Part shown: piece by piece, positions 1 to 25,704 of the stretch
How positions within the stretch are numbered: the first letter of the stretch is position 1
How the letters are laid out: the number at the start of each line of letters is the position of its first letter
Source of the DNA: a virus
Taxonomy: Duplodnaviria > Heunggongvirae > Uroviricota > Caudoviricetes
Virus record (IMG/VR): IMGVR_UViG_2657245132_000008
Location: 1-26,160 of that record
Reading direction: 5' to 3' (one strand)
Length of the DNA: 26,160 nucleotides
Translations under genes and position numbers: made by a program
Notes under the pieces: model-generated
The model's input: the letters and a program-made list of their open reading frames with translations, nothing else
What the model was told of the DNA's origin: nothing
The model's database searches: none

Positions 1-1011
1 TTATAACGTCACTCCGCCTTTTAGTGGATTCAGAGCGACGGCATTTTGCAGATAGTCAGGCGCAAGGTGTGCATAGGCCATCGTCTGCTGAATGCTCGCA
101 TGTCCCAGAATCTGTTGCAGTGCGATTATATTGCCCCCATTCATCATGAAATGGCTTGCGAATGTATGCCGCAGGATGTGGGTTGCCTGATTGGGTGGTA
201 TATCAGGTTTCACTCTGCGTAAAATCCCGCAAAATTTCTCATAATCAACTTTGAATAATTTGGCGCTGGCCTCCTCTTTAACTTTTTTCTCCAGTTCCTC
301 AGAAATCGGCACGGTTCGCTTTTTACCGTTTTTGGTTTTCAGGAAGGTAACCCTGCAATTTGTAATCTGTGCTGGTTTTAGCGTGGCAACTTCCGTCCAT
401 CTTCCTCCGGTGCTCAGACATAAAAGCGCGACAAGTAAGTCATCACCAGCCAAAACATTTAACAGTTTTTCGATTTCTGCTTTTTCCAGGAACGTCATTT
501 CAGGGTTGGCCTCCGCCAGTGGCGGCAGTCCGTGAATTGGGTGTTGCCCGGAAAATTCATCCAATTGAATTAATTTTGTGAACATGCCGGATAATCGGTA
601 CATGTCACGGTTTATCGTTGCGGCACTGATACCATCACGTAGTCGCATGGAACGATAATCCATCAAAGCCCTTTTGCTCATCCTGCTCACTGGTATATCA
701 CCTATGCCGCTGATGGTTTTGAGTAGATGATTAAACTCTTTTGTTCCATGCTCGTGGTTTTGCCCGTGATATTTCCACCAGATGTCCAGCAACTCACTCA
801 AAGTCCGGCGGTCTGCTCGCTGGCCTCCCCATTCTTTCTGACTGGCATTGGCGATTGTGTATCGCTCAAATGCTAGTGCTTCAGCTTTTCTTTCGAATTT
901 CCTGCGGATGCGTTTTCCGTCGCGACCGCGAGGTCTAATGTCCACTTCATAGCGACCATCATCGAGCTTCTTAATTGCCATAAGAAAGCCCTCCGGCGCT
1001 GTATTCACCAT
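1..1011 (-). CDS. int: P2-type tyrosine integrase (336 aa incl. possible N-terminal extension; alternative start at MAIKKL)
   Basis: Long minus-strand ORF at the prophage edge, immediately downstream of the C repressor gene as in P2 (Pc -> C -> int). C-terminal region contains the R...HxxR...Y-type tyrosine recombinase signature (HILRHTFASH... LGHASIQQTMAYAHL). Size matches P2 Int (~337 aa, from memory). Confidence 0.85.
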   Translation of the reverse strand: MVNTAPEGFLMAIKKLDDGRYEVDIRPRGRDGKRIRRKFERKAEALAFERYTIANASQKEWGGQRADRRTLSELLDIWWKYHGQNHEHGTKEFNHLLKTISGIGDIPVSRMSKRALMDYRSMRLRDGISAATINRDMYRLSGMFTKLIQLDEFSGQHPIHGLPPLAEANPEMTFLEKAEIEKLLNVLAGDDLLVALLCLSTGGRWTEVATLKPAQITNCRVTFLKTKNGKKRTVPISEELEKKVKEEASAKLFKVDYEKFCGILRRVKPDIPPNQATHILRHTFASHFMMNGGNIIALQQILGHASIQQTMAYAHLAPDYLQNAVALNPLKGGVTL

Positions 1012-3237: not shown

Positions 3238-3509
3238 GTATTCGTATTGAAATTGGCGAACGTTATGTCGTTACCAGTGACAGCTTTCAGTTTATTCTCC
3301 ACGAGAAAAAGAGAGCGGAAAGCGGTAAAAACGCCGGTCAGGAATGGCTGGCGGTGGTTGGTTATTACCCGAAATTAGGCCAGCTCGTTTCCGGCCTGAT
3401 GCATCACGATATTCTGACCGGAAGCGCAAAATCTTTTGCTGATTTAAACGCGCAGGTTGAGCAACTCAGCAAGCGTTGTTCAGAGGCTTTTGGCTCATAT
3501 GGCCGTTAA
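3234..3509 (+). CDS. Early-operon small protein, P2 orf83-like (91 aa)
   Basis: ATG at 3234; overlaps the start of A. Confidence 0.5.
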   Translation: MSIRIEIGERYVVTSDSFQFILHEKKRAESGKNAGQEWLAVVGYYPKLGQLVSGLMHHDILTGSAKSFADLNAQVEQLSKRCSEAFGSYGR

Positions 3510-5775
3510 AGCCTCCGGGCGTTTTGTCCCTCCGTCAGCATTTACCGCAGGCACCGGTAAGGCGTTTACCGGTGCTTATGCATGGAACGCGCCACGCGAG
3601 GCTGTCGGGCGCGAAAGACCTCTTACACGTGACGAGATGCGTCAGGTGCAAGGTGTTTTATCCACGATTAACCGCCTGCCTTACTTTTTGCGCTCGCTGT
3701 TTACTTCACGCTATGACTACATCCGGCGCAATAAAAGCCCGGTGCACGGGTTTTATTTCCTCACATCTACTTTTCAGCGTCGTTTATGGCCGCGCATTGA
3801 GCGTGTGAATCAGCGCCATGAAATGAACACCGACGCGTCGTTGCTGTTTCTGGCAGAGCGTGACCACTATGCGCGCCTGCCGGGAATGAATGACAAGGAG
3901 CTGAAAAAGTTTGCCGCCCGTATCTCATCGCAGCTTTTCATGATGTATGAGGAACTCTGCGATGCATGGGTTGATGCGCATGGTGAAAAAGAATCGCTGT
4001 TTACGGATGAGGCGCAGGCTCACCTGTATGGTCATGTTGCTGGCGCTGCACGTGCTTTCAATATTTCCCCGCTCTACTGGAAAAAATACCGTAAAGGACA
4101 GATGACCACGAGGCAGGCATATTCTGCCATTGCCCGCCTGTTTAACGATGAGTGGTGGACTCATCAGCTTAAAGGCCAGCGTATGCGCTGGCATGAGGCG
4201 TTACTGATAGCTGTCGGGGAGGTCAATAAAGACCGTTCTCCTTATGCCAGTAAACACGCCATTCGTGATGTGCGTGCGCGCCGCCAGGCAAATCTGGAAT
4301 TTCTTAAATCGTGTGACCTTGAAAACAGGGAAACCGGCGAGCGCATCGACCTTATCAGTAAGGTGATGGGCAGTATTTCTAATCCTGAAATTCGCCGGAT
4401 GGAGCTGATGAACACCATTGCCGGTATTGAGCGTTACGCCGCCGCAGAGGGTGATGTGGGGATGTTTATCACGCTGACCGCGCCGTCAAAGTATCACCCG
4501 ACACGTCAGGTCGGAAAAGGCGAAAGTAAAACCGTTCAGCTTAATCACGGCTGGAACGATGAGGCATTTAATCCAAAGGATGCGCAGCGTTATCTCTGCC
4601 GTATCTGGAGCCTGATGCGCACGGCATTCAAGGATAATGATTTACAGGTCTACGGTTTGCGAGTCGTCGAGCCACACCACGACGGAACGCCGCACTGGCA
4701 TATGATGCTTTTTTGTCATCCACGCCAGCGTAACCAGATTATCGAAATCATGCGTCGCTATGCGCTCAAAGAGGATGGCGACGAAAGAGGAGCCGCGCGA
4801 AACCGTTTTCAGGCAAAACACCTTAACCGGGGCGGTGCTGCGGGATATATCGCGAAATACATTTCAAAAAACATCGACGGCTATGCACTGGATGGTCAGC
4901 TCGATAACGACACCGGCAGGCCGCTGAAAGACACTGCAGCGGCTGTTACCGCATGGGCGTCAACGTGGCGCATTCCGCAATTTAAAACGGTTGGCCTGCC
5001 GACAATGGGGGCTTACCGTGAACTACGCAAATTGCCTCGCGGCGTCAGCATTGCTGATGAGTTTGACGAGCGCGTCGAGGCTGCACGCGCCGCCGCAGAC
5101 AGTGGTGATTTTGCGCTGTATATCAGCGCGCAGGGCGGGGCAAATGTCCCGCGCGATTGTCAGACTGTCAGGGTCGCCCGTAGTCTGTCGGATGACGTTA
5201 ACGAGTACGAGGAAGAAGTCGAGAGAGTGGTCGGCATTTACGCGCCGCATCTCGGCGCGCGTCATATTCATATCACCAGAACGACGGACTGGCGCATTGT
5301 GCCGAAAGTTCCGGTCGTTGAGCCTTTGACTTTAAAAAGCGGCATCGCCGCGCCTCGGAGTCCTGTCAATAACTGTGGAAAGCTCACCGGTGGTGATACT
5401 TCGTTACCAGCTCCCACACCTTCTGAGCACGCCGCAGCAGTGCTTAATCTGGTTGATGACGGTGTCATCGAATGGAATGACCCGGAGGTCGTGAGGGCGC
5501 TCAGAGGTGCATTAAAACATGGCCTGAGAACACCAAATCGCCAGCAAAGAAACGGAAGCCCGTTAAAACCGCATGAAATGGCACCATCGGCCAGACTGAC
5601 CCGGTCGGAACGAATGCAAATTACCCGTATCCGCGTTGACCTTGCTCAGAACGGTATCAGGCCGCAGCGATGGGAGCTTGAGGCGCTGGCGCGTGGGGCA
5701 ACCGTAAATTATGACGGGAAAAAATTCACGTATCCGGTCGCTAATGAGTGGTCGGTTTTTTCAATTAAACAATAA
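3499..5775 (+). CDS. A: Replication initiation endonuclease gpA (rolling-circle HUH/Rep-type; 758 aa from ATG 3499; track start 3457 is TTG)
   Basis: HUH-type motif PHWHMMLF (~4690-4710) and the paired-tyrosine motif GYIAKYISKN (Tyr codons ~4846 and ~4858), as in the phiX174 A / P2 A rolling-circle initiators. Size matches P2 A (761 aa, from memory). Confidence 0.9.
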   Translation: MAVKASGRFVPPSAFTAGTGKAFTGAYAWNAPREAVGRERPLTRDEMRQVQGVLSTINRLPYFLRSLFTSRYDYIRRNKSPVHGFYFLTSTFQRRLWPRIERVNQRHEMNTDASLLFLAERDHYARLPGMNDKELKKFAARISSQLFMMYEELCDAWVDAHGEKESLFTDEAQAHLYGHVAGAARAFNISPLYWKKYRKGQMTTRQAYSAIARLFNDEWWTHQLKGQRMRWHEALLIAVGEVNKDRSPYASKHAIRDVRARRQANLEFLKSCDLENRETGERIDLISKVMGSISNPEIRRMELMNTIAGIERYAAAEGDVGMFITLTAPSKYHPTRQVGKGESKTVQLNHGWNDEAFNPKDAQRYLCRIWSLMRTAFKDNDLQVYGLRVVEPHHDGTPHWHMMLFCHPRQRNQIIEIMRRYALKEDGDERGAARNRFQAKHLNRGGAAGYIAKYISKNIDGYALDGQLDNDTGRPLKDTAAAVTAWASTWRIPQFKTVGLPTMGAYRELRKLPRGVSIADEFDERVEAARAAADSGDFALYISAQGGANVPRDCQTVRVARSLSDDVNEYEEEVERVVGIYAPHLGARHIHITRTTDWRIVPKVPVVEPLTLKSGIAAPRSPVNNCGKLTGGDTSLPAPTPSEHAAAVLNLVDDGVIEWNDPEVVRALRGALKHGLRTPNRQQRNGSPLKPHEMAPSARLTRSERMQITRIRVDLAQNGIRPQRWELEALARGATVNYDGKKFTYPVANEWSVFSIKQ

Positions 5776-5919
5776 TGACTACTACTGCAGTGTTGTGGGA
5801 ATGTTATAGTGTTTGTGGAATTTTTCTATGAAAAACAATGAATTAATCTGTTTTTCATATTGAGCTAATTTTTTATGGCCACAGTTGTTAAAAAGTGAGA
5901 ACATAATCTTGTTCAAAAC

Positions 5920-5976
5920 CTGCTTCTATATACGGAGGCTTTCGCTATAATACGCGGTCGGTTTTAGGAGGGGATA
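5920..5976 (+). promoter_or_regulatory. Putative sigma70 promoter and RBS for the methyltransferase gene
   Basis: Perfect -10 hexamer TATAAT at ~5946-5951 and AGGAGGGG RBS at ~5966-5973, 4-5 nt before ATG 5977. The -35 is weak or unclear. Confidence 0.4.
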
Positions 5977-6921
5977 ATGCCAACAGTAGTTTCACTTTTT
6001 TCTGGATGCGGTGGTTCCGATGCGGGGGTTTTGAGAGCCGGCTTTGATGTGCTTATGGCCAACGATATCTTGCCGTATGCGCGCGATGTTTATATTGCCA
6101 ATCATCCAGAAACTGATTACATATTAGGCAATATTGCTGATGTAACTACTTTTCCTAAATCTGATTTGCTGGTAGGTTGTTATCCATGTCAGGGATTCAG
6201 CCAGGGTGGTGCGCGTAAAGCCGATCGAAAAATTAATACTCTTTATTTAGAGTTTGCTAGAGCTTTAAACAATATAAAGCCTAAAGCTTTTATAGTAGAA
6301 AACGTGTCTGGTATGGTTAGAAAAAATTTTGAGCATTTGTTATCTGACCAGATCAGGGTTTTTACTGAAGCAGGTTATACTGTTTCCGCAAAAGTTTTAA
6401 ATGCGGCTGAATATGGAGTAGCGCAGGAAAGAAAAAGAATATTTATCGTAGGAATCCGTAATGATTTCAAAGTTAAGTACGAGTTCCCTCAGCCAACTCA
6501 TGGGCCAGCAACTGGCGTCAACTATGTTACTATTAAAGATGCTATAGGGCATTTACCTGAATGGCCAGAAGGTGAATTTTATGATATGGGATTCCATTGG
6601 TATTATATGTCTCGCAATCGTCGCCAGGATTGGGATCAAATTTCAAAGACAATAGTTGCTAATGCAAGGCATATGCCGTTGCATCCTGTCAGTCCTCCGA
6701 TGGAGAAAGTAAGAACTGATGAATGGAGATTTGTTGAGGATCGGAGAGCTCGCAGATTCAGTTTTCGAGAGGCAGCACTATTACAAGGGTTTGAGGATCT
6801 AGTGTTTCCAGAAACAAATGCTGCAAGTCTTGGCATGAAATACACGGTGGTTGGTAATGCAGTGCCTCCGCCGCTTTTTGAAGCTGTAACGAAGGCATTG
6901 CCAATAGAATTATGGGATTGA
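5977..6921 (+). CDS. C5-cytosine DNA methyltransferase (Dcm-like, 314 aa)
   Basis: Conserved C5-MTase motifs in canonical order: I FSGCGG (aa 8-13), IV PCQGFS (catalytic Cys71, codon ~6187-6189), VI ENVSGM, VIII QERKRIFIVG, IX RRFSFREAALLQGFED, X VVGNAV. A variable region between VIII and IX would be the target-recognition domain. Located in an AT-rich cargo island. Confidence 0.9.
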   Translation: MPTVVSLFSGCGGSDAGVLRAGFDVLMANDILPYARDVYIANHPETDYILGNIADVTTFPKSDLLVGCYPCQGFSQGGARKADRKINTLYLEFARALNNIKPKAFIVENVSGMVRKNFEHLLSDQIRVFTEAGYTVSAKVLNAAEYGVAQERKRIFIVGIRNDFKVKYEFPQPTHGPATGVNYVTIKDAIGHLPEWPEGEFYDMGFHWYYMSRNRRQDWDQISKTIVANARHMPLHPVSPPMEKVRTDEWRFVEDRRARRFSFREAALLQGFEDLVFPETNAASLGMKYTVVGNAVPPPLFEAVTKALPIELWD

Positions 6922-6928
6922 TAAGCTA

Positions 6929-7921
6929 TTAAGGCTCTGGATTTAATGTATAAAGCTCTTCCTCAAATTCGCGAAACCAATCAGAGGTAGTTATCGCTTC
7001 CCATTGGTTTGCCTTATCAAGTAGATATATGATTCTCAACCTATCTAATAATAATACTCCAGCGGTTGCGTGTGTGCTTACCCATTCGCCATTTGCTTCC
7101 CGATAGAAAACAGGCGTGAACATTGTTGATGGATGCTGGAACGCAATTTGGAAATAGGTGGTCAGTTTTAACACGTTAGCCTCTAATGTTTTGCTTGGCC
7201 ACCCTGTTTCTTGTGCACCACATTGACCAAGAATTCCATAGTTGCTAGTTTGACCATCAGGAAATTCCACTGTAGCAATTAGGTCAAACCCGGCATCACC
7301 AGATGTGGGAGCTCTATTTATTTCCCTTGTGTTTAAACTACAAACTCCAAGATCTTTTCCTAAAGTTTGTAGAGCTGTCCGAAGATTTGTTCCATAATAA
7401 TTTTGCCTATCATCGGAGTTAGCATCAAAAATTCTTACGGTGCCATGTGCAGGTAAGAGAGAAATCATTGCTACTTTACATACTCTGGCAAAGCTCTTTG
7501 CCCAACGTTGTGCTGCTCCTTTAATCGACTTAAAGGATCTAAGTCTAGAGCAGCAAAGAAGAAAAACATATATTCGTTGTTGTTGGTTTAGATTTTCTTT
7601 AATAATTATCTCATCACCTGAAATTATAAATGGATATATTTTGCCAAGAGCACTTTCTCTATATTCGAGTTGTGTCCAAACATCTTCGAGTTGCTCTTCA
7701 AAACGATCATTTCTCTCAGCGTCTCCATTAATTTCTTCTTCAGAATTACATTCTTCATCAATTTCTTCAACGCTTGTTATGCCGAATTTTCTTACTGAAT
7801 CTAAATCATTTTTATGTAGTGAGTTACGTCCGGTATAATTAATTACCGTGAGTAACTCGGCTAAATCTGCAAACAAATGAGGAGAGTTGGGATGCATAAC
7901 TCCTACTTCAAAAGTCATCAT
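6929..7921 (-). CDS. Cargo protein of unknown function (~330 aa), second gene of a two-gene operon; strongly acidic N-proximal tract
   Basis: Long ORF in AT-rich DNA, start ATG at 7921 or 7918 (track start 7924 is GTG) overlapping the stop of the upstream gene by ~14 nt, which implies translational coupling. AGAGG/GAGGTG RBS just upstream. No catalytic motif recognisable by eye. Confidence 0.75.
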   Translation of the reverse strand: MMTFEVGVMHPNSPHLFADLAELLTVINYTGRNSLHKNDLDSVRKFGITSVEEIDEECNSEEEINGDAERNDRFEEQLEDVWTQLEYRESALGKIYPFIISGDEIIIKENLNQQQRIYVFLLCCSRLRSFKSIKGAAQRWAKSFARVCKVAMISLLPAHGTVRIFDANSDDRQNYYGTNLRTALQTLGKDLGVCSLNTREINRAPTSGDAGFDLIATVEFPDGQTSNYGILGQCGAQETGWPSKTLEANVLKLTTYFQIAFQHPSTMFTPVFYREANGEWVSTHATAGVLLLDRLRIIYLLDKANQWEAITTSDWFREFEEELYTLNPEP

Positions 7922-9029
7922 CACCTCTGCTATTTTTCTCTGCTATTTCAGAACCTATAAGCTTAATATGTTTATTGATTCTTCGTGCTACTTCATGGGC
8001 CTGTCTATCATACTCTACCGTGGCAACCATGCCTGCTGCATCTATCAAAGCTGCTTCAACTTGATAAAGTAACTGGAGAAAGTCCTTAGTAATATCAGAT
8101 GTCAATTGATAGGCAACTGCGAGTGGAGCCCCCATTCGGAATTGCTCCAATGCCTTAGGGCTACTTACAACAGCAGCTAATTCTCTTAAATTACGTGATT
8201 CTCCTACACGAGTTTTTTTATCCTCGCCTTTTTTATATAACCATTCAGTTAGTTCTTTTATTTCTTTGTTCTTTAAACTCTTAGAATTGATGATAGGATG
8301 ACTTGGTATTGTGTCTCCATCGTCTTCGATTGAAACTCCGACAAACTGGCCTAACCGCTCATCAGCAAGTGCTGTTGATAATACTGAAAATTTAATCGTT
8401 TCTTCATCTAGCTTTTCAATACCATAAAAATCATTTTTTTTAATGATTTCATACACCGCTAAAGCGTCTAGGTTACGCTTGATATGATCCCTACGACTGC
8501 CAATAGCTCTGGCAACCTCATAGTAGCGTAGCATTGGATCCAGATTTGCATTGGTATAATCAAAAAGCTGTTTAATATATCGAGCTTTTGATAAGGGTTC
8601 CCATTGTTTGACACCAGTAATATGTCTGAAACCAAGGTACGGAAGAATCTCTTCTCTTGTTTGGCGCTCAATGACAGGAACACGATCGACCGTATGTTTT
8701 GCATTTGATGCAATTTCTCGTAGTCGAGCACTTGGATTTTCACATAGTGTCGGATCGCGTAATAATTTGACCGCGGATAGGCGACGGTTTCCTTCAACTA
8801 CAATGTACTTCCCCGGCGCTCCACTATCAGGAATGACAATCAATGGTTCTCCAGGGAAAAAACCATTTTCCGCAATAGCACTCATTAGGTCTTCGATAGA
8901 TGTTGAGGTTGCTATGTAGTTAATCATTCCCAATTGGTCACGAGACACGCCTTCAGGAAGTCTTGGGTTTTCTGTGTCAAGTTCCAAATCATCTAGCGGA
9001 ACATAAAGTATTTCTGAATCAGCAATCAT
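7908..9029 (-). CDS. ParB/Srx-fold (DUF262/DndB/GmrS-like) domain protein (373 aa from ATG 9029), first gene of the cargo operon
   Basis: ATG at 9029 preceded by GGAGA with 5-nt spacer (track start 9068 is TTG). N-terminal segment PLIVIPDSGAPGKYIVVEGNRRLSAVKLL has the [ED]G-x-[RQ]-R-L arginine motif of the ParB N-terminal domain superfamily (codons ~8781-8796). The remainder is predicted helical and of unknown function. Confidence 0.75.
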   Translation of the reverse strand: MIADSEILYVPLDDLELDTENPRLPEGVSRDQLGMINYIATSTSIEDLMSAIAENGFFPGEPLIVIPDSGAPGKYIVVEGNRRLSAVKLLRDPTLCENPSARLREIASNAKHTVDRVPVIERQTREEILPYLGFRHITGVKQWEPLSKARYIKQLFDYTNANLDPMLRYYEVARAIGSRRDHIKRNLDALAVYEIIKKNDFYGIEKLDEETIKFSVLSTALADERLGQFVGVSIEDDGDTIPSHPIINSKSLKNKEIKELTEWLYKKGEDKKTRVGESRNLRELAAVVSSPKALEQFRMGAPLAVAYQLTSDITKDFLQLLYQVEAALIDAAGMVATVEYDRQAHEVARRINKHIKLIGSEIAEKNSRGDDDF

Positions 9030-9234
9030 CTGGATCTCCGTTGAACATGTCCACGAGAAGGAGCACAAAGTTATTTCATAACATGCAATATACTCATTCT
9101 GTAGCCATAAATGAATTATTCATGATGTAAGATTCGCGTTGATGTGCGTGAATTCGCAAGTAATTATACAGCAAGGTTTGATTGGGTATCGTCAGCACCA
9201 GTGCGGTTCCAACGTACTCATGCAACTGCATTAA

Positions 9235-9443: not shown

Positions 9444-10478
9444 TCAGCCGTTGTCAGTGTCCAGTGAGTAGTTTTTAAAGCGGATGACCTCCTGACCGAG
9501 CCAGCCGTTTATTTCCCGAATCCTGTCCTGTAACGGGATAAGCTCATTGCGGACAAAGACCTTTGCCACTTTCTCAATATCACCCAGCGACCCGACGTTC
9601 TCCGGCTTGCCGCCCATCAACTGAAAGGGGATGCGGTGCGCGTCCAGCAGGTCAGCGGCGCTGGCTTTTTTGATATTAAAAAAATCGTCCTTCGTTGCGA
9701 CTTCACTGAGCGGGATAATTTTAATGCCGTCGGCTTTCCCCTGTGGGGCATAGAGAAACAGATTTTTAAAGTTGTTGCGGCCTTTCGACTTCACCATGTT
9801 TTCGCGGAGCATTTCGATATCGTTGCGATCCTGCACGGCATCAGTGACGTACATGATGTATCCGGCATGTGCGCCGTTTTCGTAATACTTGCGGCGGAAC
9901 AGCGTGGCCGACTCATTCAGCCAGGCAGAGTTAAGGGCGCTGAGATATTCCGGCAGGCCGTACAACTCCTGATTAATATCCGGCTCCAGCAGGTGAAACA
10001 CGGAGCCGGGCGCGAAGGCTGTCGGTTCGTTGAAGGACGGCACCCACCAGTAAACATCCTCTTCCACCCCACGGCGGGTATATTTTGCCGGTGAGGTTTC
10101 CAGTCTGATGACCTTACCGGTGGTGCTGTAACGCTTTTCCAGAAACGCATTACCGAACACCAGAAAATCCAGCACAAAGCGGCTGAAATCCTGTTGTGAA
10201 AGCCACGGATGCGGGATAAATGTCGAGGCCAGAATATTACGTTTGACGTAAATCGGTGAGCTGTGATGTACGGCAGCACGCAGGCTTTTTGCCAGACCGG
10301 TAAAGCTGACCGGTGGCTCATACCATCTGCCGTTACTGATGCACTCGACGTAATCCAGAATGTCACGGCGGTCGAGTACCGGCACCGGCTCACCAAAGGT
10401 GAATGCCTCCATTTTCGGGGCGCTGGCGGTCATTGTTTTTGCCGCAGGTTGCGGTGTTTTCCCTTTTTTCTTGCTCAT
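9444..10478 (-). CDS. Q: Portal protein gpQ (344 aa)
   Basis: Size identical to P2 Q (344 aa, from memory); adjacent to cos; start codon overlaps the stop of P. Confidence 0.85.
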   Translation of the reverse strand: MSKKKGKTPQPAAKTMTASAPKMEAFTFGEPVPVLDRRDILDYVECISNGRWYEPPVSFTGLAKSLRAAVHHSSPIYVKRNILASTFIPHPWLSQQDFSRFVLDFLVFGNAFLEKRYSTTGKVIRLETSPAKYTRRGVEEDVYWWVPSFNEPTAFAPGSVFHLLEPDINQELYGLPEYLSALNSAWLNESATLFRRKYYENGAHAGYIMYVTDAVQDRNDIEMLRENMVKSKGRNNFKNLFLYAPQGKADGIKIIPLSEVATKDDFFNIKKASAADLLDAHRIPFQLMGGKPENVGSLGDIEKVAKVFVRNELIPLQDRIREINGWLGQEVIRFKNYSLDTDNG

Positions 10479-12250
10479 CAGTAAAACTCCAGAATGGTGG
10501 ATGTCAGCGGGGTGCTGATACCGGCGGTGAGTGGCTCATTTAACAGGGCGTGCATGGTCGCCCAGGCGAGGTCGGCGTGGCTGGCTTCCTCGCTGCGGCT
10601 GGCCTCATAGGTGGCACTGCGTCCGCTGCTGGTCATGGTCTTGCGGATAGCCATAAACGAGCTGGTGATGTCGGTGGCGCTGACGTCATATTCCAGACAG
10701 CCACGGCGGATAACGTCTTTTGCCTTGAGCACCATTGCGGTTTTCATTTCCGGCGTGTAGCGGATGTCGCGCGCGGCAGGATAGAACGAGCGCACGAGCT
10801 GGAACACGCCGACACCGAGGCCGGTGGCATCAATACCGATGTATTCGACGTTGTATTTTTCGGTGAGTTTGCGGATGGATTCCGCCTGGGTGGCAAAGTC
10901 CATGCCTTTCCACTGGTGACGCTCAAGTATTCTGAATTTGCCACCGGCAACCACCGGCGGTGCCAGTACCACGCATCCGGCGCTGTCGCCACGGTGTGAC
11001 GGGTCGTAACCAATCCAGACCGGGCGTGAGCCGAACGGATTGGCGGCAAACGGCGCATAGTCTTCCCATTCTTCCAGCGTGTCGACCATGCAGCGTTGCA
11101 ACTCCTCGAACGGGAACACCGACGCCTTGTCGTCAACAAATTCACACATGAACAGGTTTTTAAAATCGTCGGCGCTGTTTTCGCGTTTGAGCTGCTCAAT
11201 GTCGAACAGCGTGCAGCCGCCTTTCAGGGCGTCCTCAATGGTGACAATCTGCCGCCACTGGCCGTCCGCACAGAGAAGACCTCCGGCAAGTGCGTTATGA
11301 CTGACGTCGATTTCCACGCGTTCAGCGGCGCTGGCGCGTCCCCGGTTAAACAGTTCACCCGACCAGAACGGGTAGGCGTCGTGCGCCAGTGTGGACGGGG
11401 TGGAGAAATAGGTCGAACGCAGGTGACTCTGTGAGGCCATACCTGATGCCACCTTACGCAGTACCTGAAAATTCGGGATCCAGAAAATCTCATCGACGTA
11501 CAGGTCGCCGTTATGGCTCTGCGCGGTGTTGGAGTTGGTGCCGAGAAAAATCAGTTTTGCGCCGTTATTGCCCAGGACAATCGGGTCACCGGTCAGGTCA
11601 ACGTCAACCAGACGGGCAAAGGCGATGATGTATTCGCGGAACACATACGCCTGCGTTTTACTGGCCGACAGAAAAATCTGGTTATGGCCGGTTTTCAGGG
11701 CGCGCAGCAGCGCCTCGCGGGAAAAATAAAACGTTGCGCCAATCTGGCGGGATTTCAGGATATCGCGGATGCGGTGCTCAAGCCCGGCGCGATACCAGTG
11801 CAACTGATAGTCGAAAGACTGCTCAAAGAAAATCTGCTCCAGCTTTTCGATGGCTTCGTCGCTGAAAAAATTCTTTTTCGGTTTGCGACGCCCGCCTTTG
11901 TTGCGGTTAGCGACGTTCGGATTAAGGTCTGCCTCGTTGCCGGTCTGACTGTAACGGTTGACCCGTGCCAGCCGTTCAATCTGGCGTCCGAGCAGGTCAA
12001 TTTCCTTGAAGTCACCGCCGGTTTTCTGCGGTTTGATGATGAGCTGGGTCAGCCGCGCTTCCAGACTCATTTCGACACGGCTGATGGGGGCAACGCTGTC
12101 CCAGCCGTCGCGCTGTTTCCAGCTCTGCACCGTCGGGCGTTTCATCTGCAACATGGCGGCAATCTGCGGCACGGAAAACCCCTGCCAGTACAGCAGCGCC
12201 GCCTGACGACGCGGGTCGTGTAAAAGAGTGGTGTCTGTGGTGATGGTCAT
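10478..12250 (-). CDS. P: Terminase large subunit gpP (590 aa from ATG 12250)
   Basis: Internal ATG (MTITTD...) gives 590 aa, the size of P2 P (from memory); divergent from O as in P2. Confidence 0.85.
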   Translation of the reverse strand: MTITTDTTLLHDPRRQAALLYWQGFSVPQIAAMLQMKRPTVQSWKQRDGWDSVAPISRVEMSLEARLTQLIIKPQKTGGDFKEIDLLGRQIERLARVNRYSQTGNEADLNPNVANRNKGGRRKPKKNFFSDEAIEKLEQIFFEQSFDYQLHWYRAGLEHRIRDILKSRQIGATFYFSREALLRALKTGHNQIFLSASKTQAYVFREYIIAFARLVDVDLTGDPIVLGNNGAKLIFLGTNSNTAQSHNGDLYVDEIFWIPNFQVLRKVASGMASQSHLRSTYFSTPSTLAHDAYPFWSGELFNRGRASAAERVEIDVSHNALAGGLLCADGQWRQIVTIEDALKGGCTLFDIEQLKRENSADDFKNLFMCEFVDDKASVFPFEELQRCMVDTLEEWEDYAPFAANPFGSRPVWIGYDPSHRGDSAGCVVLAPPVVAGGKFRILERHQWKGMDFATQAESIRKLTEKYNVEYIGIDATGLGVGVFQLVRSFYPAARDIRYTPEMKTAMVLKAKDVIRRGCLEYDVSATDITSSFMAIRKTMTSSGRSATYEASRSEEASHADLAWATMHALLNEPLTAGISTPLTSTILEFY

Positions 12251-12423
12251 GAATACCTCGCCGTGATGAATACACGGCAAGGCTACTGAGTCGCGCCCCG
12301 CGATTCGCTAAGGTGCTGTTGTGTCAGTGATAAGCCATCCGGGACTGATGGCGGAGGATGCGCATCGTCGGGAAACTGATGCCGACATGTGACTCCTCTA
12401 ATCACTATTCAGGACTCCTGACA
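12251..12423. promoter_or_regulatory. Divergent late-promoter region (P2 PP/PO equivalent)
   Basis: Intergenic region between divergent P and O. In P2 this holds the Ogr-dependent late promoters. Assigned by position only; I could not find a clean TGT-N12-ACA Ogr dyad by eye. Confidence 0.35.
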
Positions 12424-13278
12424 ATGGCAAAAAAAGTCTCAAAATTCTTTCGTATCGGCGTTGAGGGTGACACCTGTGACGGGCGTGTCATCAGTGCGCA
12501 GGATATTCAGGAAATGGCTGAAACCTTTGACCCGCGCGTCTATGGTTGCCGCATTAACCTGGAACATCTGCGCGGCATCCTGCCTGACGGTATTTTTAAA
12601 CGTTATGGCGATGTGGTTGAACTGAAGGCCGAAAAGATTGATGACGATTCGGCGCTGAAAGGCAAATGGGCGCTGTTTGCGAAAATCACCCCGACCGATG
12701 ACCTTATCGCGATGAACAAGGCCGCGCAGAAGGTCTATACCTCAATGGAAATTCAGCCGAACTTTGCCAATACCGGCAAATGTTATCTGGTGGGTCTGGC
12801 CGTCACCGATGACCCGGCAAGCCTCGGCACGGAATACCTGGAATTCTGCCGCACGGCAAAACACAACCCCCTGAACCGCTTCAAATTAAGCCCTGAAAAC
12901 CTGATTTCAGTGGCAACGCCTGTTGAGCTGGAATTTGAAGACCTGCCTGAAACAGTGTTCACCGTCCTGACCGAAAAGGTGAAGTCCATTTTTGGCCGCA
13001 AACAGGCCAGCGATGATGCCCGTCTGAATGACGTGCATGAAGCGGTGACCGCTGTTGCTGAACATGTGCAGGAAAAACTGAGCGCCACTGAGCAGCGCCT
13101 CGCTGAGATGGAAACCGCCTTTTCCGCACTTAAGCAGGAGGTGACTGACAGGGCGGATGAAACCAGCCAGGCATTCACCCGCCTGAAAAACAGTCTCGAC
13201 CACACCGAAAGTCTGACCCAGCAGCGCCGCAGCAAGGCCACCGGTGGTGGCGGTGACGCCCTGATGACGAACTGCTGA
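12424..13278 (+). CDS. O: Capsid scaffolding protein gpO (284 aa from ATG 12424)
   Basis: Internal ATG (MAKKVSKFF...) gives 284 aa, matching P2 O (from memory); C-terminal coiled-coil-like region. Confidence 0.85.
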   Translation: MAKKVSKFFRIGVEGDTCDGRVISAQDIQEMAETFDPRVYGCRINLEHLRGILPDGIFKRYGDVVELKAEKIDDDSALKGKWALFAKITPTDDLIAMNKAAQKVYTSMEIQPNFANTGKCYLVGLAVTDDPASLGTEYLEFCRTAKHNPLNRFKLSPENLISVATPVELEFEDLPETVFTVLTEKVKSIFGRKQASDDARLNDVHEAVTAVAEHVQEKLSATEQRLAEMETAFSALKQEVTDRADETSQAFTRLKNSLDHTESLTQQRRSKATGGGGDALMTNC

Positions 13279-13336
13279 CCGGCGTCAGTCAGTCCGGGAA
13301 AACCTTCACGATTAACCCTTAATTTCAGGAAAAACT

Positions 13337-14410
13337 ATGCGCCAGGAAACCCGCTTTAAATTTAATGCCTACCTGTCCCGTGTTGCCGAGCTGAACGGCA
13401 TCGACGCCGGTGATGTGTCGAAAAAATTCACCGTTGAACCGTCGGTCACCCAGACCCTGATGAACACCATGCAGGAGTCCTCTGACTTTCTGACCCGCAT
13501 CAACATTGTGCCGGTCAGCGAAATGAAAGGGGAAAAAATTGGTATCGGTGTCACCGGCTCCATCGCCAGCACCACCGACACCGCCGGTGGCACCGAGCGT
13601 CAGCCGAAGGACTTCTCGAAGCTGGCGTCTAACAAGTACGAATGCGACCAGATTAACTTCGATTTTTATATCCGCTACAAAACGCTGGACCTGTGGGCGC
13701 GTTATCAGGATTTCCAGCTCCGTATCCGTAACGCCATTATCAAACGCCAGTCCCTTGATTTCATCATGGCCGGTTTTAACGGCGTGAAGCGTGCAGAAAC
13801 CTCTGACCGCAACAGTAATCCGATGTTGCAGGATGTGGCGGTCGGCTGGCTGCAGAAATACCGCAATGAAGCCCCGGCGCGTGTGATGAGCAAGGTCACT
13901 GACGAGGAAGGTCACACGACCTCTGAGGTCATCCGCGTGGGTAAGGGCGGTGATTATGCCAGCCTTGATGCACTGGTGATGGATGCGACCAACAACCTGA
14001 TTGAACCGTGGTATCAGGAAGACCCTGACCTTGTGGTGATTGTGGGGCGTCAGCTACTGGCGGACAAGTATTTCCCCATCGTTAACAAGGAGCAGGACAA
14101 CAGCGAAATGCTGGCCGCTGACGTCATCATCAGCCAGAAACGCATCGGTAACCTGCCGGCGGTACGCGTCCCGTACTTCCCGGCGGATGCGATGCTCATC
14201 ACGAAGCTGGAAAACCTGTCCATCTACTACATGGATGACAGCCATCGCCGCGTGATTGTGGAAAACCCGAAACTCGACCGCGTGGAGAACTACGAGTCAA
14301 TGAACATTGATTACGTGGTGGAAGACTACGCCGCCGGTTGTCTGGTGGAAAAAATTAAGGTCGGTGATTTCTCCACACCGGCTAAGGCGACCGCAGAGCC
14401 GGGAGCGTAA
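13337..14410 (+). CDS. N: Major capsid protein gpN (357 aa)
   Basis: ATG at 13337 with CAGGA RBS; size identical to P2 N (357 aa, from memory); position O-N-M. Confidence 0.9.
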   Translation: MRQETRFKFNAYLSRVAELNGIDAGDVSKKFTVEPSVTQTLMNTMQESSDFLTRINIVPVSEMKGEKIGIGVTGSIASTTDTAGGTERQPKDFSKLASNKYECDQINFDFYIRYKTLDLWARYQDFQLRIRNAIIKRQSLDFIMAGFNGVKRAETSDRNSNPMLQDVAVGWLQKYRNEAPARVMSKVTDEEGHTTSEVIRVGKGGDYASLDALVMDATNNLIEPWYQEDPDLVVIVGRQLLADKYFPIVNKEQDNSEMLAADVIISQKRIGNLPAVRVPYFPADAMLITKLENLSIYYMDDSHRRVIVENPKLDRVENYESMNIDYVVEDYAAGCLVEKIKVGDFSTPAKATAEPGA

Positions 14411-14413
14411 CCG

Positions 14414-15157
14414 ATGACGAGTCCCGCACAGCGCCACATGATGCGGGTCTCGGCAGCGATGACCGCGCAGCGGGAAGCCGCCCCGCTGCGACATGCAACT
14501 GTCTATGAGCAGATGCTGGTCAAGCTGGCCGCAGACCAGCGCACACTGAAAGCGATTTATTCAAAAGAGCTGAAGGCCGCGAAAAAGCGCGAACTGCTGC
14601 CGTTCTGGTTGCCGTGGGTGAACGGCGTGCTGGAGCAGGGCAAAGGCGCACAGGATGACATTCTGATGACGGTCATGCTGTGGCGTCTGGATACCGGCGA
14701 TATTGCCGGTGCGCTGGAGATTGCCCGTTATGCCCTGAAATACGGTCTGACCATGCCGGGTAAACACCGCCGCACCCCGCCGTATATGTTCACCGAGGAG
14801 GTCGCGCTCGCGGCCATGCGCGCCCACGCGGCCGGTGAGTCTGTGGATACCCGCCTGCTGACGGAGACCCTTGAACTGACTGCCGCTGCTGACATGCCTG
14901 ATGAAGTGCGCGCAAAGCTGCACAAAATCACCGGTCTGTTTCTGCGTGACGGTGGTGATGCCGCCGGTGCGCTGGCTCACCTGCAACGTGCGACACAGCT
15001 CGACTGTCAGGCAGGCGTCAAAAAAGAGATTGAACGACTGGAGCGGGAGCTGAAACCGAAGCCGGAGCCGCAGCCCAAAGCGGCCACCCGCGCCCCGCGT
15101 AAGATCCGGAGCGTGACACCGGCAAAACGTGGACGCCCGAAAAAGAAAGCCAGTTAA
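14414..15157 (+). CDS. M: Terminase small subunit gpM (247 aa)
   Basis: Size identical to P2 M (247 aa, from memory); basic C-terminal tail (RGRPKKKAS). Confidence 0.85.
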   Translation: MTSPAQRHMMRVSAAMTAQREAAPLRHATVYEQMLVKLAADQRTLKAIYSKELKAAKKRELLPFWLPWVNGVLEQGKGAQDDILMTVMLWRLDTGDIAGALEIARYALKYGLTMPGKHRRTPPYMFTEEVALAAMRAHAAGESVDTRLLTETLELTAAADMPDEVRAKLHKITGLFLRDGGDAAGALAHLQRATQLDCQAGVKKEIERLERELKPKPEPQPKAATRAPRKIRSVTPAKRGRPKKKAS

Positions 15158-15256
15158 CAACCGAATGCGCCCCGCGCCAGGGCGGCACGCCGGTCAGTGA
15201 GGGTGAATCACCTGACACTGCACCGGCGTCCACCGCCCGACTTTTCAGAGGTAGTC

Positions 15257-15766
15257 ATGATGACGCTGATTATTCCGCGAAAGGAGGCTCCCGTGTCCGG
15301 TGAGGGTACGGTGGTCATCCCGCAACCGGCAGGCGACGAGCCGGTGATTAAAAACACGTTCTTTTTTCCCGATATCGACCCGAAGCGCGTCCGGGAACGT
15401 ATGCGCCTTGAGCAGACCGTCGCCCCCGCCCGTCTGCGTGAGGCCATCAAGTCAGGCATGGCGGAGACGAATGCGGAGCTGTACGAGTACCGCGAACAGA
15501 AAATTGCCGCCGGTTTTACGCGTCTGGCGGACGTCCCGGCGGACGACATCGACGGTGAAAGCATCAAAGTTTTTTACTACGAGCGCGCCGTGTGTGCGAT
15601 GGCGACCGCGTCGCTTTATGAACGTTATCGCGGTGTGGATGCCAGTGCGAAAGGCGACAAGAAGGCCGACAGCATTGACAGCACCATTGATGAGCTGTGG
15701 CGGGATATGCGCTGGGCAGTGGCGCGTATCCAGGGCAAGCCGCGCTGCATCGTGAGTCAAATCTGA
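15257..15766 (+). CDS. L: Head completion protein gpL (169 aa from ATG 15257)
   Basis: Internal ATG with CAGAGG RBS gives 169 aa, matching P2 L (from memory). Confidence 0.8.
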   Translation: MMTLIIPRKEAPVSGEGTVVIPQPAGDEPVIKNTFFFPDIDPKRVRERMRLEQTVAPARLREAIKSGMAETNAELYEYREQKIAAGFTRLADVPADDIDGESIKVFYYERAVCAMATASLYERYRGVDASAKGDKKADSIDSTIDELWRDMRWAVARIQGKPRCIVSQI

Positions 15767-15969
15767 TGAAGACCTTTGCGCTACAGGGCGACACGCTCGA
15801 CGCCATTTGTGTCCGGTATTACGGGCGCACTGAGGGCGTGGTTGAGACCGTGCTCGCCGCAAATCCGGGACTGGCTGAACTGGGTGCGGTGCTGCCACAC
15901 GGCACCGCCGTCGAACTGCCCGACGTTCAGACCGCGCCCGTGGCTGAAACTGTCAATCTGTGGGAGTAA
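15766..15969 (+). CDS. X: Tail protein gpX (67 aa)
   Basis: ATG overlapping the L stop (CTGATGA) gives 67 aa, matching P2 X (from memory). Confidence 0.75.
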   Translation: MKTFALQGDTLDAICVRYYGRTEGVVETVLAANPGLAELGAVLPHGTAVELPDVQTAPVAETVNLWE

Positions 15970-15972
15970 CGC

Positions 15973-16254
15973 ATGACAGCAGAAGAAAAAAGCGTCCTGT
16001 CGCTTTTCATGATTGGGGTGCTGATTGTTGTCGGCAAGGTGCTTGCCGGTGGTGAACCCATCACCCCGCGTCTGTTTATCGGGCGCATGTTGCTCGGTGG
16101 TTTTGTCTCGATGGTTGCCGGTGTTGTTCTGGTGCAGTTTCCTGACCTGTCACTGCCTGCGGTGTGCGGTATCGGCTCCATGCTGGGTATCGCCGGTTAT
16201 CAGGTGATTGAGATTGCCATTCAGCGCCGTTTTAAGGGCAGGGGGAAACAGTAA
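15973..16254 (+). CDS. Y: Holin gpY (93 aa)
   Basis: Two to three hydrophobic transmembrane segments with a charged C-terminus (RRFKGRGKQ); size matches P2 Y (93 aa, from memory); directly upstream of the endolysin gene. Confidence 0.85.
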   Translation: MTAEEKSVLSLFMIGVLIVVGKVLAGGEPITPRLFIGRMLLGGFVSMVAGVVLVQFPDLSLPAVCGIGSMLGIAGYQVIEIAIQRRFKGRGKQ

Positions 16255-16751
16255 TGCCGGTAATTAACACGCATCAGAATATCGCTGCCTTTCTCGACAT
16301 GCTGGCCGTGTCCGAAGGGACGGCGAATCATCCGCTGACGAAAAACCGGGGCTATGACGTGATAGTCACCGGACTGGACGGGAAGCCGGAAATCTTCACC
16401 GACTACAGCGACCACCCGTTCGCGCATGGCCGACCGGCGAAGGTGTTTAACCGTCGCGGTGAAAAATCCACGGCCTCCGGTCGCTATCAGCAGCTTTACC
16501 TGTTCTGGCCGCATTACCGCAAACAGCTTGCCCTGCCGGATTTCAGTCCGTTGTCACAGGACAGACTCGCCATTCAGTTGATCCGCGAACGCGGTGCACT
16601 GGATGACATCCGGGCGGGACGCATTGAGCGCGCCATTTCACGCTGTCGCAATATCTGGGCGTCCCTGCCGGGTGCCGGTTACGGTCAGCGTGAGCATTCA
16701 CTGGAAAAACTGGTCACCGTCTGGCGTACCGCTGGCGGCGTACCGGCTTAA
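16254..16751 (+). CDS. K: Endolysin gpK (165 aa; lysozyme / lytic transglycosylase family)
   Basis: ATG overlaps the Y stop (TAATG); size matches P2 K (165 aa, from memory); sits in the lysis cassette. Confidence 0.85.
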   Translation: MPVINTHQNIAAFLDMLAVSEGTANHPLTKNRGYDVIVTGLDGKPEIFTDYSDHPFAHGRPAKVFNRRGEKSTASGRYQQLYLFWPHYRKQLALPDFSPLSQDRLAIQLIRERGALDDIRAGRIERAISRCRNIWASLPGAGYGQREHSLEKLVTVWRTAGGVPA

Positions 16752-16765
16752 ACGGAGTAAACACC

Positions 16766-17191
16766 ATGAAGAAATTATCCCTTTCACTGATGCTGAACGT
16801 GTCGCTGGCGCTGATGCTGGCACTGTCCCTGATTTACCCGCAGAGCGTGGCCGTCAGTTTTGTCGCCACCTGGGCGATTCTGGCGACGGTTATCTGTGTG
16901 GTTGCCGGTGGTGTCGGCGTGTATGCCACGGAGTATGTGCTGGAACGCTACGGGCGGGAGCTGCCGCCGGAATCGCTGGCCGTGAAGATTGTCACGTCGC
17001 TGTTTTTGCAGCCGGTGCCGTGGCGCAGACGGGCGGCGGCTCTGGTGGTGATGGTGGCGACGTTTATCTCGCTGGTCGCTGCCGGGTGGATTTTTACCGC
17101 GCTGATTTACCTCGTGGCGTCGGTGTTTTTCCGGCTGATACGTAAAGCCTGTCGTCAGCGTCTTGAGGGGCGGGAATTATGTCAAAGCTGA
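16766..17191 (+). CDS. lysA: Lysis-timing membrane protein LysA (141 aa)
   Basis: Multi-pass hydrophobic protein following K; size matches P2 LysA (from memory). Confidence 0.75.
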   Translation: MKKLSLSLMLNVSLALMLALSLIYPQSVAVSFVATWAILATVICVVAGGVGVYATEYVLERYGRELPPESLAVKIVTSLFLQPVPWRRRAAALVVMVATFISLVAAGWIFTALIYLVASVFFRLIRKACRQRLEGRELCQS

Positions 17192-17604
17192 TGATTGTGC
17201 TGGTCGTGTTGTTATCGCTGGCGGTGGCGGGGCTGTTTCTGGCGAAGCATGAAAACGCCAGCCTGCGCACCTCACTGGACAGGGCGAACAGCGTCGCCAG
17301 TGAACAGCAGACGACCATCACCATGCTGAAAAATCAGCTTCATGTTGCCATCACCAGGGCAGATAAAAACGAGCTGGCGCAGGTTGCACTGCGTCAGGAG
17401 CTGGAGAACGCCGCGAATCGTGAAGCACAGCGCGAGAAAACCATCACGAGGTTACTGAATGAAAACGAAGATTTCCGCCGCTGGTACGGTGCTGACCTGC
17501 CTGATGCTGTGCGCCGGTTGCACCAGCGCACAGCCTGTGCAGACGCCAGTGATTGTCCACAACGCCTGCCCGAAAGTGAGCCTTTGCCCGATGCCGGGCA
17601 GTGA
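17179..17604 (+). CDS. lysB: Inner-membrane spanin LysB (141 aa, Rz-like)
   Basis: N-terminal TM helix followed by a coiled-coil periplasmic domain; size matches P2 LysB (from memory). Confidence 0.8.
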   Translation: MSKLMIVLVVLLSLAVAGLFLAKHENASLRTSLDRANSVASEQQTTITMLKNQLHVAITRADKNELAQVALRQELENAANREAQREKTITRLLNENEDFRRWYGADLPDAVRRLHQRTACADASDCPQRLPESEPLPDAGQ

Positions 17605-17749
17605 CCCGGAGACGAACGGCGATTTAAGTGCCGATATCCGGCAGCTTGAGAACGCGCTGGCACGCTGTGCCAGCCAGGTAAAAATGATTAAACACTGTCA
17701 GGACGAAAACGATGCTCAAACCCGACAGCCTGCGCAGGGCGCTGACTGA
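17459..17749 (+). CDS. lysC: Outer-membrane lipoprotein spanin LysC (96 aa, Rz1-like), overlapping the 3' end of lysB in another frame
   Basis: Signal peptide with lipobox (LMLCAGC) and a Pro-rich mature part; begins inside lysB, the classic overlapped spanin arrangement. Confidence 0.8.
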   Translation: MKTKISAAGTVLTCLMLCAGCTSAQPVQTPVIVHNACPKVSLCPMPGSDPETNGDLSADIRQLENALARCASQVKMIKHCQDENDAQTRQPAQGAD

Positions 17750-18179
17750 TGCCGTCACGGTGCTGAAAACTAACCCCGATATGCTGCGGATATTCGTGGA
17801 TAACGGGAGTATTGCCTCCACACTGGCGACGTCGCTGTCATTCGAAAAGCGTTACACGCTCAATGTGATTGTGACCGACTTTACCGGTGATTTTGACCTG
17901 CTCATTGTGCCGGTGCTGGCGTGGCTGCGGGAAAATCAGCCCGACATCATGACCACCGACGCAGGCCAGAAAAAAGGTTTCACGTTTTATGCAGACATCA
18001 ACAATGACAGCAGCTTTGATATCAGCATCAGCCTGATGCTGACCGAGCGCACGCTGGTCAGTGAGGTGGACGGCGCACTGCATGTGAAGAATATCCCGGA
18101 ACCTCCGCCGCCGGAGCCGGTCACCCGCCCGATGGAGCTTTATATCAATGGCGAACTGGTGAGTAAGTGGGATGAATGA
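17712..18179 (+). CDS. R: Tail completion protein gpR (155 aa)
   Basis: Size identical to P2 R (from memory); position after the lysis genes. Confidence 0.8.
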   Translation: MLKPDSLRRALTDAVTVLKTNPDMLRIFVDNGSIASTLATSLSFEKRYTLNVIVTDFTGDFDLLIVPVLAWLRENQPDIMTTDAGQKKGFTFYADINNDSSFDISISLMLTERTLVSEVDGALHVKNIPEPPPPEPVTRPMELYINGELVSKWDE

Positions 18180-18624
18180 GTTTAAGCGTTTTGAAGACCG
18201 GCTGGCGGGACTGATTGAATCGCTGTCACCGTCAGGGCGTCGGCGACTGAGTGCCGAACTGGCGAAACGTCTGCGGCAGAGTCAGCAGCGTCGGGTGATG
18301 GCACAGAAAGCCCCGGACGGAACACCCTACGCGCCACGCCAGCAGCAGAGCGCCAGAAAAAAGACCGGTCGTGTTAAGCGAAAAATGTTTGCGAAACTTA
18401 TCACCAGTCGTTTTTTGCATATCCGCGCCAGCCCGGAACAGGCATCAATGGAATTTTACGGCGGGAAGTCGCCGAAAATCGCCAGTGTGCATCAGTTCGG
18501 TCTGTCGGAAGAAAACCGGAAAGACGGTAAGAAAATTGATTATCCGGCGCGTCCCCTACTCGGCTTTACCGGTGAGGATGTGCAGATGATTGAAGAGATT
18601 ATTCTGGCGCACCTCAACCGTTAG
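18172..18624 (+). CDS. S: Tail completion protein gpS (150 aa)
   Basis: Size identical to P2 S (from memory); start overlaps the R stop. Confidence 0.8.
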   Translation: MNEFKRFEDRLAGLIESLSPSGRRRLSAELAKRLRQSQQRRVMAQKAPDGTPYAPRQQQSARKKTGRVKRKMFAKLITSRFLHIRASPEQASMEFYGGKSPKIASVHQFGLSEENRKDGKKIDYPARPLLGFTGEDVQMIEEIILAHLNR

Positions 18625-18690
18625 TTGTGCCATTCCCGACACCTCATCGTCACATTGCCGCCGGTATGACCCGGCGGCATCCTTCCCGTT

Positions 18691-19676: not shown

Positions 19677-19680
19677 AATC

Positions 19681-21112: not shown

Positions 21113-21122
21113 GTGAGAAACA

Positions 21123-24319: not shown

Positions 24320-24371
24320 ATCGTATTAGCTCTGGTGTGAGTTTATACATCTATGGCACAGGGTAAAAACT

Positions 24372-24406: not shown

Positions 24407-24523
24407 GTCAAAGCGCAGAGTGAATGGCTAAGTCTAGCTCATTAGAAATGTTCGCTTCATGAAAATGGCTGCAGCAAGGATCTATCTCACTGCGGCCTCT
24501 TTACAATAACGAAATTTTGCGAG

Positions 24524-25690: not shown

Positions 25691-25704
25691 GTTGTTTCAT
25701 CCCC

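Follow-up and report, generated by a model that had tools for sequence, protein, structure and literature searches.

A C5-cytosine methylase of a P2-like prophage as the probable modification arm of a conserved three-gene, restriction-modification-like cassette

The DNA considered here is the stretch of 26,160 nucleotides (nt) spanning positions 1 to 26,160 of the IMG/VR record IMGVR_UViG_2657245132_000008, hereafter the window, and the whole of it corresponds to a P2-like (Peduovirus) prophage of Escherichia coli. Between its replication gene A and its portal gene Q a small cargo island of low G+C content (GC) carries three genes, which encode a C5-cytosine DNA methyltransferase (the methylase), a protein modelled as a winged helix followed by an endonuclease fold (the middle protein), and a ParB/Srx-fold protein (the ParB-like protein). 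The methylase is probably the modification arm of a conserved three-gene, restriction-modification (R-M)-like defence cassette residing in this replication-gene/portal hotspot of P2. Judged from its sequences, the cassette as a whole is best read as a PD-lambda-5-related, R-M-like system that is widespread and uncharacterised, and for which we infer the mechanism set out further below. Its genes and signals are the following:

5734-5755, plus strand: terminator-like hairpin 3' of gene A, which separates the methylase from the upstream phage transcript
5946-5951, plus strand: TATAAT -10 box of the methylase, read in the sequence and conserved in homologous loci
5966-5971, plus strand: AGGAGG ribosome-binding site, 5 nt ahead of the ATG and kept in enterobacterial homologues
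5977-6921, plus strand: C5-cytosine DNA methyltransferase, 314 aa, from ATG to TGA (Pfam PF00145, M.HaeIII alignment)
6922-6928, no strand: 7-nt spacer between convergent stop codons, without a terminator
6929-7918, minus strand: middle gene, 329 aa, of PHROG 3984 (function unknown); model of a winged helix followed by an endonuclease fold; putative effector nuclease
7908-9029, minus strand: 373-aa protein of ParB/Srx fold, a relative of PD-Lambda-5_A; shares 11 nt with the middle gene, in one operon with it

Co-inheritance of the methylase with the two-gene operon

By means of the middle protein, 91 loci were gathered from species-representative genomes, viral contigs, metagenomes and exact-sequence look-ups. 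All three genes were full length in 66 of them, corresponding to 42 non-redundant loci at 95% identity, which are situated in prophages and integrative elements of Gamma- and Betaproteobacteria. In nearly all loci an orthologous C5 methylase (58-100% identical) converges on the operon across a gap of 5-84 nt, while in some the 3' ends of the methylase and middle genes overlap by 4 nt instead. Carriers include a 186/P2-like prophage of Salmonella, with the cassette at the equivalent hotspot, an integrative element of Pseudomonas nitroreducens, in which the cassette adjoins the integrase, and a prophage of Burkholderia vietnamiensis, with further cassettes in genomes of Edwardsiella, Methylophilaceae, Methylobacter, Methyloversatilis, Gallionella, Nitrosomonadales and Halomonas. 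A methylase adjacent to and co-inherited with a gene of endonuclease fold, the arrangement that defines Type II R-M systems, was found in this way in 42 loci.

The same linkage emerged when the methylase itself served as the starting point. All six methylase clusters looked up, the abundant Enterobacteriaceae cluster P0331 among them, stood convergent to an operon of ParB-like (357-373 aa) and middle (308-341 aa) genes at the A/portal hotspot, and in the phage collection the 12 records holding the methylase were exactly those with a near full-length ParB-like gene. Stand-alone copies of the methylase clade were not seen in these contexts (6 clusters, 12 phage records), and no close homologue of the methylase was found on plasmids. 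An earlier sequence-only reading of the window had hesitated between an orphan anti-restriction methylase and a modification partner in an unusual three-gene, R-M-like layout. The former is contradicted by the ParB-like/nuclease-fold operon that adjoins the methylase in every cluster and phage record just mentioned, and the latter gains support from co-inheritance in unrelated mobile elements together with the endonuclease fold of the middle gene product.

Over the 42 loci conservation is highest in the methylase, with a mean pairwise identity of 70%, versus 55% (ParB-like protein) and 48% (middle protein). Methylase distances correlate with those of the middle protein (Mantel r = 0.43, p = 5e-4), those of the ParB-like and middle proteins being correlated at r = 0.90. 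Relative to the window, the proteins of coliphage Wphi are 34% (ParB-like), 25% (middle) and 76% (methylase) identical, and those of Pseudomonas phage D14A 35%, 26% and 64%, respectively.

Some loci depart from the common layout but preserve the linkage. In L012 (5997-6929), L065, L072 and L079 the methylase is separated from the middle gene by an extra gene of ~310 aa with a C-terminal HNH_2 domain (PF13391, 7e-11), which could encode a second restriction enzyme sharing the methylase. The methylase stands upstream of the operon and on the same strand in L087 and L088, and a 42%-identical methylase oriented as the operon occurs in L080. Two loci look like decayed cassettes or parts thereof. 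In a Klebsiella pneumoniae genome (GCA_033899885.1; L099, 6953-7942) codon 85 of the middle gene is a premature stop, whereas both other genes, methylase and ParB-like, are intact, which was counted in favour of the methylase being the modification arm. Of a former cassette, Yersinia phage L-413C (L093, 207-1199) appears to retain no more than a ParB-like gene truncated at its 3' end (330 aa, 62% identity across 299 residues), methylase and middle gene having been lost. An intact operon beside a broken methylase was not seen in this small sample. Locus L016 is uninformative on methylase linkage, because an IS607-like insertion follows its ParB/middle pair.

Features of the three proteins and of the methylase recognition region

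The methylase translation contains FSGCGG (motif I), PCQGFS (IV), ENV (VI), QERKR (VIII), REAALLQGF (IX) and GNAV (X), in the order characteristic of C5-methyltransferases (PF00145) and with the variable recognition region between motifs VIII and IX. It aligns with Pfam PF00145 over residues 3-308 (profile positions 2-322 of 324, E=5.5e-65) and scores 192 bits against NCBIfam TIGR00675 (dcm), whose cut-off is 100.65. It is a complete C5-cytosine methyltransferase, with a similarity far beyond chance, as the sequence-only reading had it on the strength of the same six motifs.

Regarding expression, that reading had assigned to the gene a strong ribosome-binding site, which is indeed present as AGGAGG, and a TATAAT -10 of its own. 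The box exists, and a TATAAT-like box at the same distance from the ATG occurs in most of 20 homologous loci of diverse origin, with Burkholderia and Pseudomonas-phage versions among them; nonetheless, a consensus promoter scan found no acceptable -35 upstream of the methylase and called no promoter at 5946-5951. Since conservation across homologues is better support than one hexamer, an independent methylase promoter is plausible, and because the terminator-like hairpin at 5734-5755 follows gene A, the methylase probably has its own transcript. At the other end of the gene, the absence of a Vsr-like gene noted earlier is readily confirmed, the convergent stop codons leaving no space for one, and a scan of the 7-nt spacer revealed no terminator between the methylase and the convergent gene. 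Two further elements lie 5' of the methylase. One is a perfect 11-nt inverted repeat at 5827-5859 (TATGAAAAACA, an 11-nt gap, TGTTTTTCATA), and the other is a block at 5876-5905 (ATGGCCACAG...GTGAGAA) that includes a GGCC site and is conserved in enterobacterial cassettes, those of Wphi and Klebsiella types included. Both may be regulatory sites.

The recognition region between motifs VIII and IX, whose comparison with methylases of known specificity had been proposed, gives an indication of the target. The methylase aligns over its full length, recognition region included, with M.HaeIII (1dct, E=1.4e-48), of which residues Ser224, Arg225, Arg227 and Arg243 are reported to contact or determine GGCC (PMC3526282). 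Their equivalents are kept in the window methylase (MSRNR ... ANARH) and in 41 cassette methylases, and the same four are retained by the 42%-identical, differently oriented methylase of L080. In addition, in one public record the homologue of Wphi type bears the name M.BspRI, also a GGCC enzyme. Because these contact residues are conserved, the methylase is predicted to produce GGCC-like 5-methylcytosine (m5C) methylation. As a separate line, GGCC was found under-represented in the phage backbone (1-5775 plus 9444-26160), with 69 sites observed versus 123 expected (observed/expected ratio, O/E, 0.56); as evidence on specificity this avoidance was set aside as not discriminating.

For the middle protein, fold comparison was the sole informative search. 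It has no significant match in Pfam, NCBIfam or PADLOC, and a profile search of PDB sequences returned coiled-coil noise only, while its model comprises an N-terminal winged helix and a C-terminal restriction-endonuclease fold of Mrr/MspJI type, for which the best matches are MspJI (top) and AspBHI. The family is large, with 252 homologues in a word-indexed search and, in an exhaustive one, 1238 representatives at E<=1e-3 and 709 at E<=1e-10, nearly all of them stand-alone proteins of about 300-365 aa. Invariant residues form a cluster, SGDxGxD(L/I)(I/V)A ... QC[GA]xx...WxxKxxE ... DRxR, which includes D208, D212, Q232, K243 and E246 of the middle protein, and whose first half resembles the GDGGIDG ... 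VQAK found in the sequence of E. coli mrr. A G or A occupies the place of the QxK lysine of the Mrr-type motif, however, so that a catalytically competent middle protein, and thereby its role as putative nuclease, is plausible but unproven.

The ParB-like protein has no above-threshold Pfam match and matches the NCBIfam ParB domain weakly. In PADLOC, 26 profiles were matched, PD-Lambda-5_A making up 24 of the 25 among the matches listed (best E=6.2e-29, residues 9-282), and the profile PDC-M38A of a PADLOC candidate system matched as well (1.2e-20). Across 47 ParB-like sequences, down to 33% identity, NPR (21-23) and EGNRR (79-83) are invariant, motifs that we take to be ParB boxes I and II. 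The protein exhibits the ParB N-terminal fold with the arginine-rich GxxRxxA box of the ParB/Srx superfamily. No HEPN domain was detected in its 373 aa; a candidate HEPN motif, RRINKH, present once in the window protein, was rejected because homologues do not conserve it.

Relation to known systems and alternative explanations

The nearest validated system is PD-lambda-5, a ParB/HEPN protein plus a methyltransferase that protects E. coli against phages, its authors having worked with an mrr-deleted host (PMC9519451). Both systems pair a DNA methyltransferase with a protein whose ParB/Srx N-terminal region is homologous between them, and PD-lambda-5 is likewise described as a prophage-borne, compact R-M-like defence (PMC9519451; PADLOC PD-Lambda-5_A/B). 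Three defining features of PD-lambda-5 are nonetheless missing here, as there is no HEPN part in the counterpart of protein A, no Dam-like methylase and no organisation as a two-gene operon. Its protein A is ~500 aa long and listed as ParB/HEPN, whereas the window protein has 373 aa and no HEPN, although the HEPN assignment in protein A is itself weakly supported by HHpred (PMC9519451). Its protein B is a Dam-like, D12-class N6-adenine methylase, whereas the window methylase is a C5-cytosine enzyme encoded on the opposite strand, and the window cassette adds a separate 329-aa protein with winged helix and endonuclease fold.

Type II R-M systems of GGCC specificity (M.HaeIII, M.BspRI) resemble the cassette in the full-length alignment of the C5 methylase with M.HaeIII and in the tail-to-tail disposition of methylase and restriction-endonuclease-fold genes. 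Such tail-to-tail methylase/endonuclease pairs are a common R-M layout. The cassette differs from them in its third conserved gene of ParB/Srx fold, in a nuclease-fold protein without sequence similarity to known restriction enzymes and without a canonical catalytic lysine position, and in the apparently single, fixed methylase specificity of the family, since typical Type II families diversify. GmrSD and BrxU also combine a nucleotide-binding module of ParB/Srx fold with a nuclease module in phage defence (PMC12839542). They are single-chain, modification-dependent Type IV enzymes, with ParB-like DUF262 fused to HNH and without a methylase, whereas in the window the modules are separate proteins, the nuclease fold is PD-(D/E)xK-like and a methylase is linked.

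Within phages, orf98, orf96 and mth of coliphage Wphi (NC_005056) present the identical three-gene layout at the same P2 hotspot, with strongly diverged ParB-like and middle proteins, and the record gives orf96 and orf98 no function. The best PADLOC profile for the window methylase is DruM2 of Druantia type II (E=1.1e-113), well above generic Type II methylase profiles. Identity with Druantia was rejected, as DruF, DruG and DruE are missing, neither of the remaining island proteins matches a Druantia profile, and the three-gene island holds no large helicase open reading frame (ORF). More than one defence system may draw on this methylase clade for its modification module.

Mechanistically, the methylase would mark host and prophage DNA at a GGCC-like site, and the middle protein would be the nuclease that attacks DNA without this mark. 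The ParB-like protein would then be a nucleotide-dependent DNA-binding or licensing component, in the manner of ParB/KorB and of the ParB-like domain of GmrSD. The tail-to-tail layout without terminator might additionally let transcription of the methylase dampen nuclease expression during establishment.

Several observations weigh against taking the methylase as the modification arm of such a cassette. The ParB/middle pair does not always need this methylase, as indicated by the loci without one. In a Methylococcaceae metagenome-assembled genome (L011, 1584-6008) and in L067 and L068 the pair immediately follows a Type I hsdS gene (582 aa), in the Crenothrix-type loci L021 and L089 there is no adjacent C5 methylase, and a high-GC scaffold of Bacteriophage sp. 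MT835579 (L109, 3989-8828) displays two facing ParB/middle pairs with no methylase between them. Literature searches returned no paper characterising or experimentally testing the three-gene cassette. Finally, PD-lambda-5 confers broad protection, strongest against T-even phages, and its authors labelled it a compacted RM+Abi system, Abi standing for abortive infection (Vassallo et al. 2022, PMC9519451). This fits poorly with simple R-M, because T-even DNA is already heavily modified.

A more ambitious version of the modification-arm reading, put forward only tentatively, is that the cassette represents a new class of nucleotide-switched R-M. The ParB/KorB-like protein would load or slide on DNA, read the absence of GGCC-type m5C and license a nuclease of Mrr/MspJI fold with a relocated catalytic lysine, one fixed methylase specificity acting as self label across Proteobacteria. 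PD-lambda-5, the Wphi-type cassette and the present one would then be branches of one ParB-centred superfamily with interchangeable effectors and methylases.

The alternative that survives best is a guard or abortive-infection mechanism. According to it, the ParB/middle pair would be a latent toxin, restrained by the methylase or by the methylated chromosome, that fires upon phage interference (DNA mimics, S-adenosylmethionine lyases, anti-restriction proteins) and kills or arrests the cell, the methylase being a guarded partner and not a self label. We consider it unlikely but a serious rival, because the nearest validated system acts best against T-even phages and is called RM+Abi (PMC9519451). 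The loci lacking the methylase also speak in its favour, both those in which a Type I hsdS directly before the pair stands in the place of the C5 methylase (L011, L067, L068) and the distant pairs with no methylase whatsoever (L109). Known guards such as PrrC are embedded likewise in Type I loci. Against it, the methylase recognition region varies unusually little, including where a replaced or re-oriented methylase is present (L080), which argues for the need of a particular DNA mark and not of the methylase protein as such. Neither HEPN nor any other typical Abi effector was detected in the cassette.

That the operon encodes a modification-dependent, Type IV-like nuclease, with the methylase mark ignored by the operon or used otherwise by the phage, is very improbable. 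The sequence-only reading had considered such a neighbour, obliged to tolerate the methylation; what remains of this suggestion is the fold, the top match MspJI and the next one, AspBHI, both being modification-dependent enzymes, to which the additional HNH_2 endonuclease gene of four loci may be joined. However, the likeness does not extend beyond the catalytic fold, neither an SRA-like domain nor another reader of modified bases was detected and the N-terminus is a winged helix, while strict co-inheritance of an m5C methylase beside a nuclease that depends on m5C would amount to self-destruction.

Orphan methylases are common in phages, and the apparent -10 box and ribosome-binding site of the methylase, on the strand opposite to the operon, would suit one that shields the phage genome from host restriction or regulates phage genes beside a coincidental operon; this orphan reading, to which hardly any likelihood is left, is rejected, since linkage to the operon was found in 42 non-redundant loci, in carriers other than P2 and in 6/6 reverse look-ups, and since phage L-413C lost the methylase together with the middle gene and part of the ParB-like gene, at its 3' end.

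While the methylase alone is ordinary, the cassette is common, one Klebsiella/Enterobacteriaceae methylase cluster being indexed in 987 blocks of the collection, and its site is the best known of the prophage hotspots for defence genes. Current annotation probably misses the complete system, because PADLOC profiles cover the ParB-like protein and not the middle protein. If the methylase is indeed coupled to the operon, a second architecture would be added to the PD-lambda-5 family, one in which both the effector and the class of methylase differ, and a tractable three-gene model for ParB/Srx-fold proteins in defence would become available. The coupling would also explain a source of GGCC-type m5C in clinical lysogens of E. 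coli, Klebsiella and Salmonella, a modification that bears on barriers to DNA transfer, such as the sensitivity of lysogen DNA to McrBC.

Prophage setting, host co-occurrence and further observations

The island and the landmarks around it are placed as follows:

1-1011, minus strand: integrase
3457-5775, plus strand: replication endonuclease, P2 gene A, left flank of the island
5776-9215, no strand: low-GC cargo island of ~3.4 kb between gene A and portal gene Q; right boundary approximate (flank from ~9216)
9444-10478, minus strand: portal gene Q, right of the island
10478-12280, minus strand: terminase, with capsid, lysis and tail genes further on

GC values of 0.37-0.42 in the island (roughly 5.5-9 kb) versus 0.51-0.61 in the phage backbone, together with matches of other P2-like phages that are restricted to the island flanks (on the right from about 9216), agree with the earlier placement of the methylase in a cargo island. 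RefSeq annotation, available for a copy that is 99.8% identical across the island and its surroundings, records three genes only in the island. Its position is that of the P2 variable locus that holds tin/old in P2 (hotspot 1), and the gene A/portal site of P2-like prophages is a described defence hotspot (PMC9519451). Yersinia phage HQ103 has an identical copy of the island, which is found entire in 48 of 5426 complete E. coli genomes.

McrBC has RmC specificity, and DNA carrying GGm5CC is expected to be attacked by it. Co-occurrence in hosts was evaluated with chimeric queries, each joining a piece of the island to K-12 mcrB or mrr, an approach that ignores clonality and the many K-12 laboratory genomes in the collection. 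K-12-type mcrB accompanies the island in at most 1 of 48 genomes, compared with about 597 of 5426 (~11%) overall, which leans in the direction expected but is at most suggestive, the test being weak, with kinship ignored and K-12 laboratory genomes included. For mrr the figures are at most 7 of 48 versus about 952 of 5426 (~17.5%), kinship again ignored, which indicates no depletion. Six genomes (NZ_CP025859.1, NZ_CP035826.1, NZ_CP035855.1, NZ_CP035836.1, NZ_CP145679.1 and NZ_LR883000.1) gave a second match with the island-mrr query and none with the island-mcrB query; most likely these E. coli genomes, all six with the island, carry K-12-type mrr without K-12-type mcrB, even though both genes lie ~8 kb apart in K-12.

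Elsewhere in the window, a second low-GC patch (GC 0.38-0.42) directly after the tail-fibre genes contains an ORF of 251 aa (24524-25279, minus strand), in the place where P2 has its second defence hotspot (fun/Z). It gave no PADLOC match and sub-threshold Pfam matches only, and may be another uncharacterised cargo gene.

As for short palindromes, the island itself exhibits no depletion of GATC, GGCC or CTAG. In the phage backbone GATC occurs 13 times versus 84 expected under a Markov model (O/E 0.16), and CTAG is also depleted (O/E 0.39).

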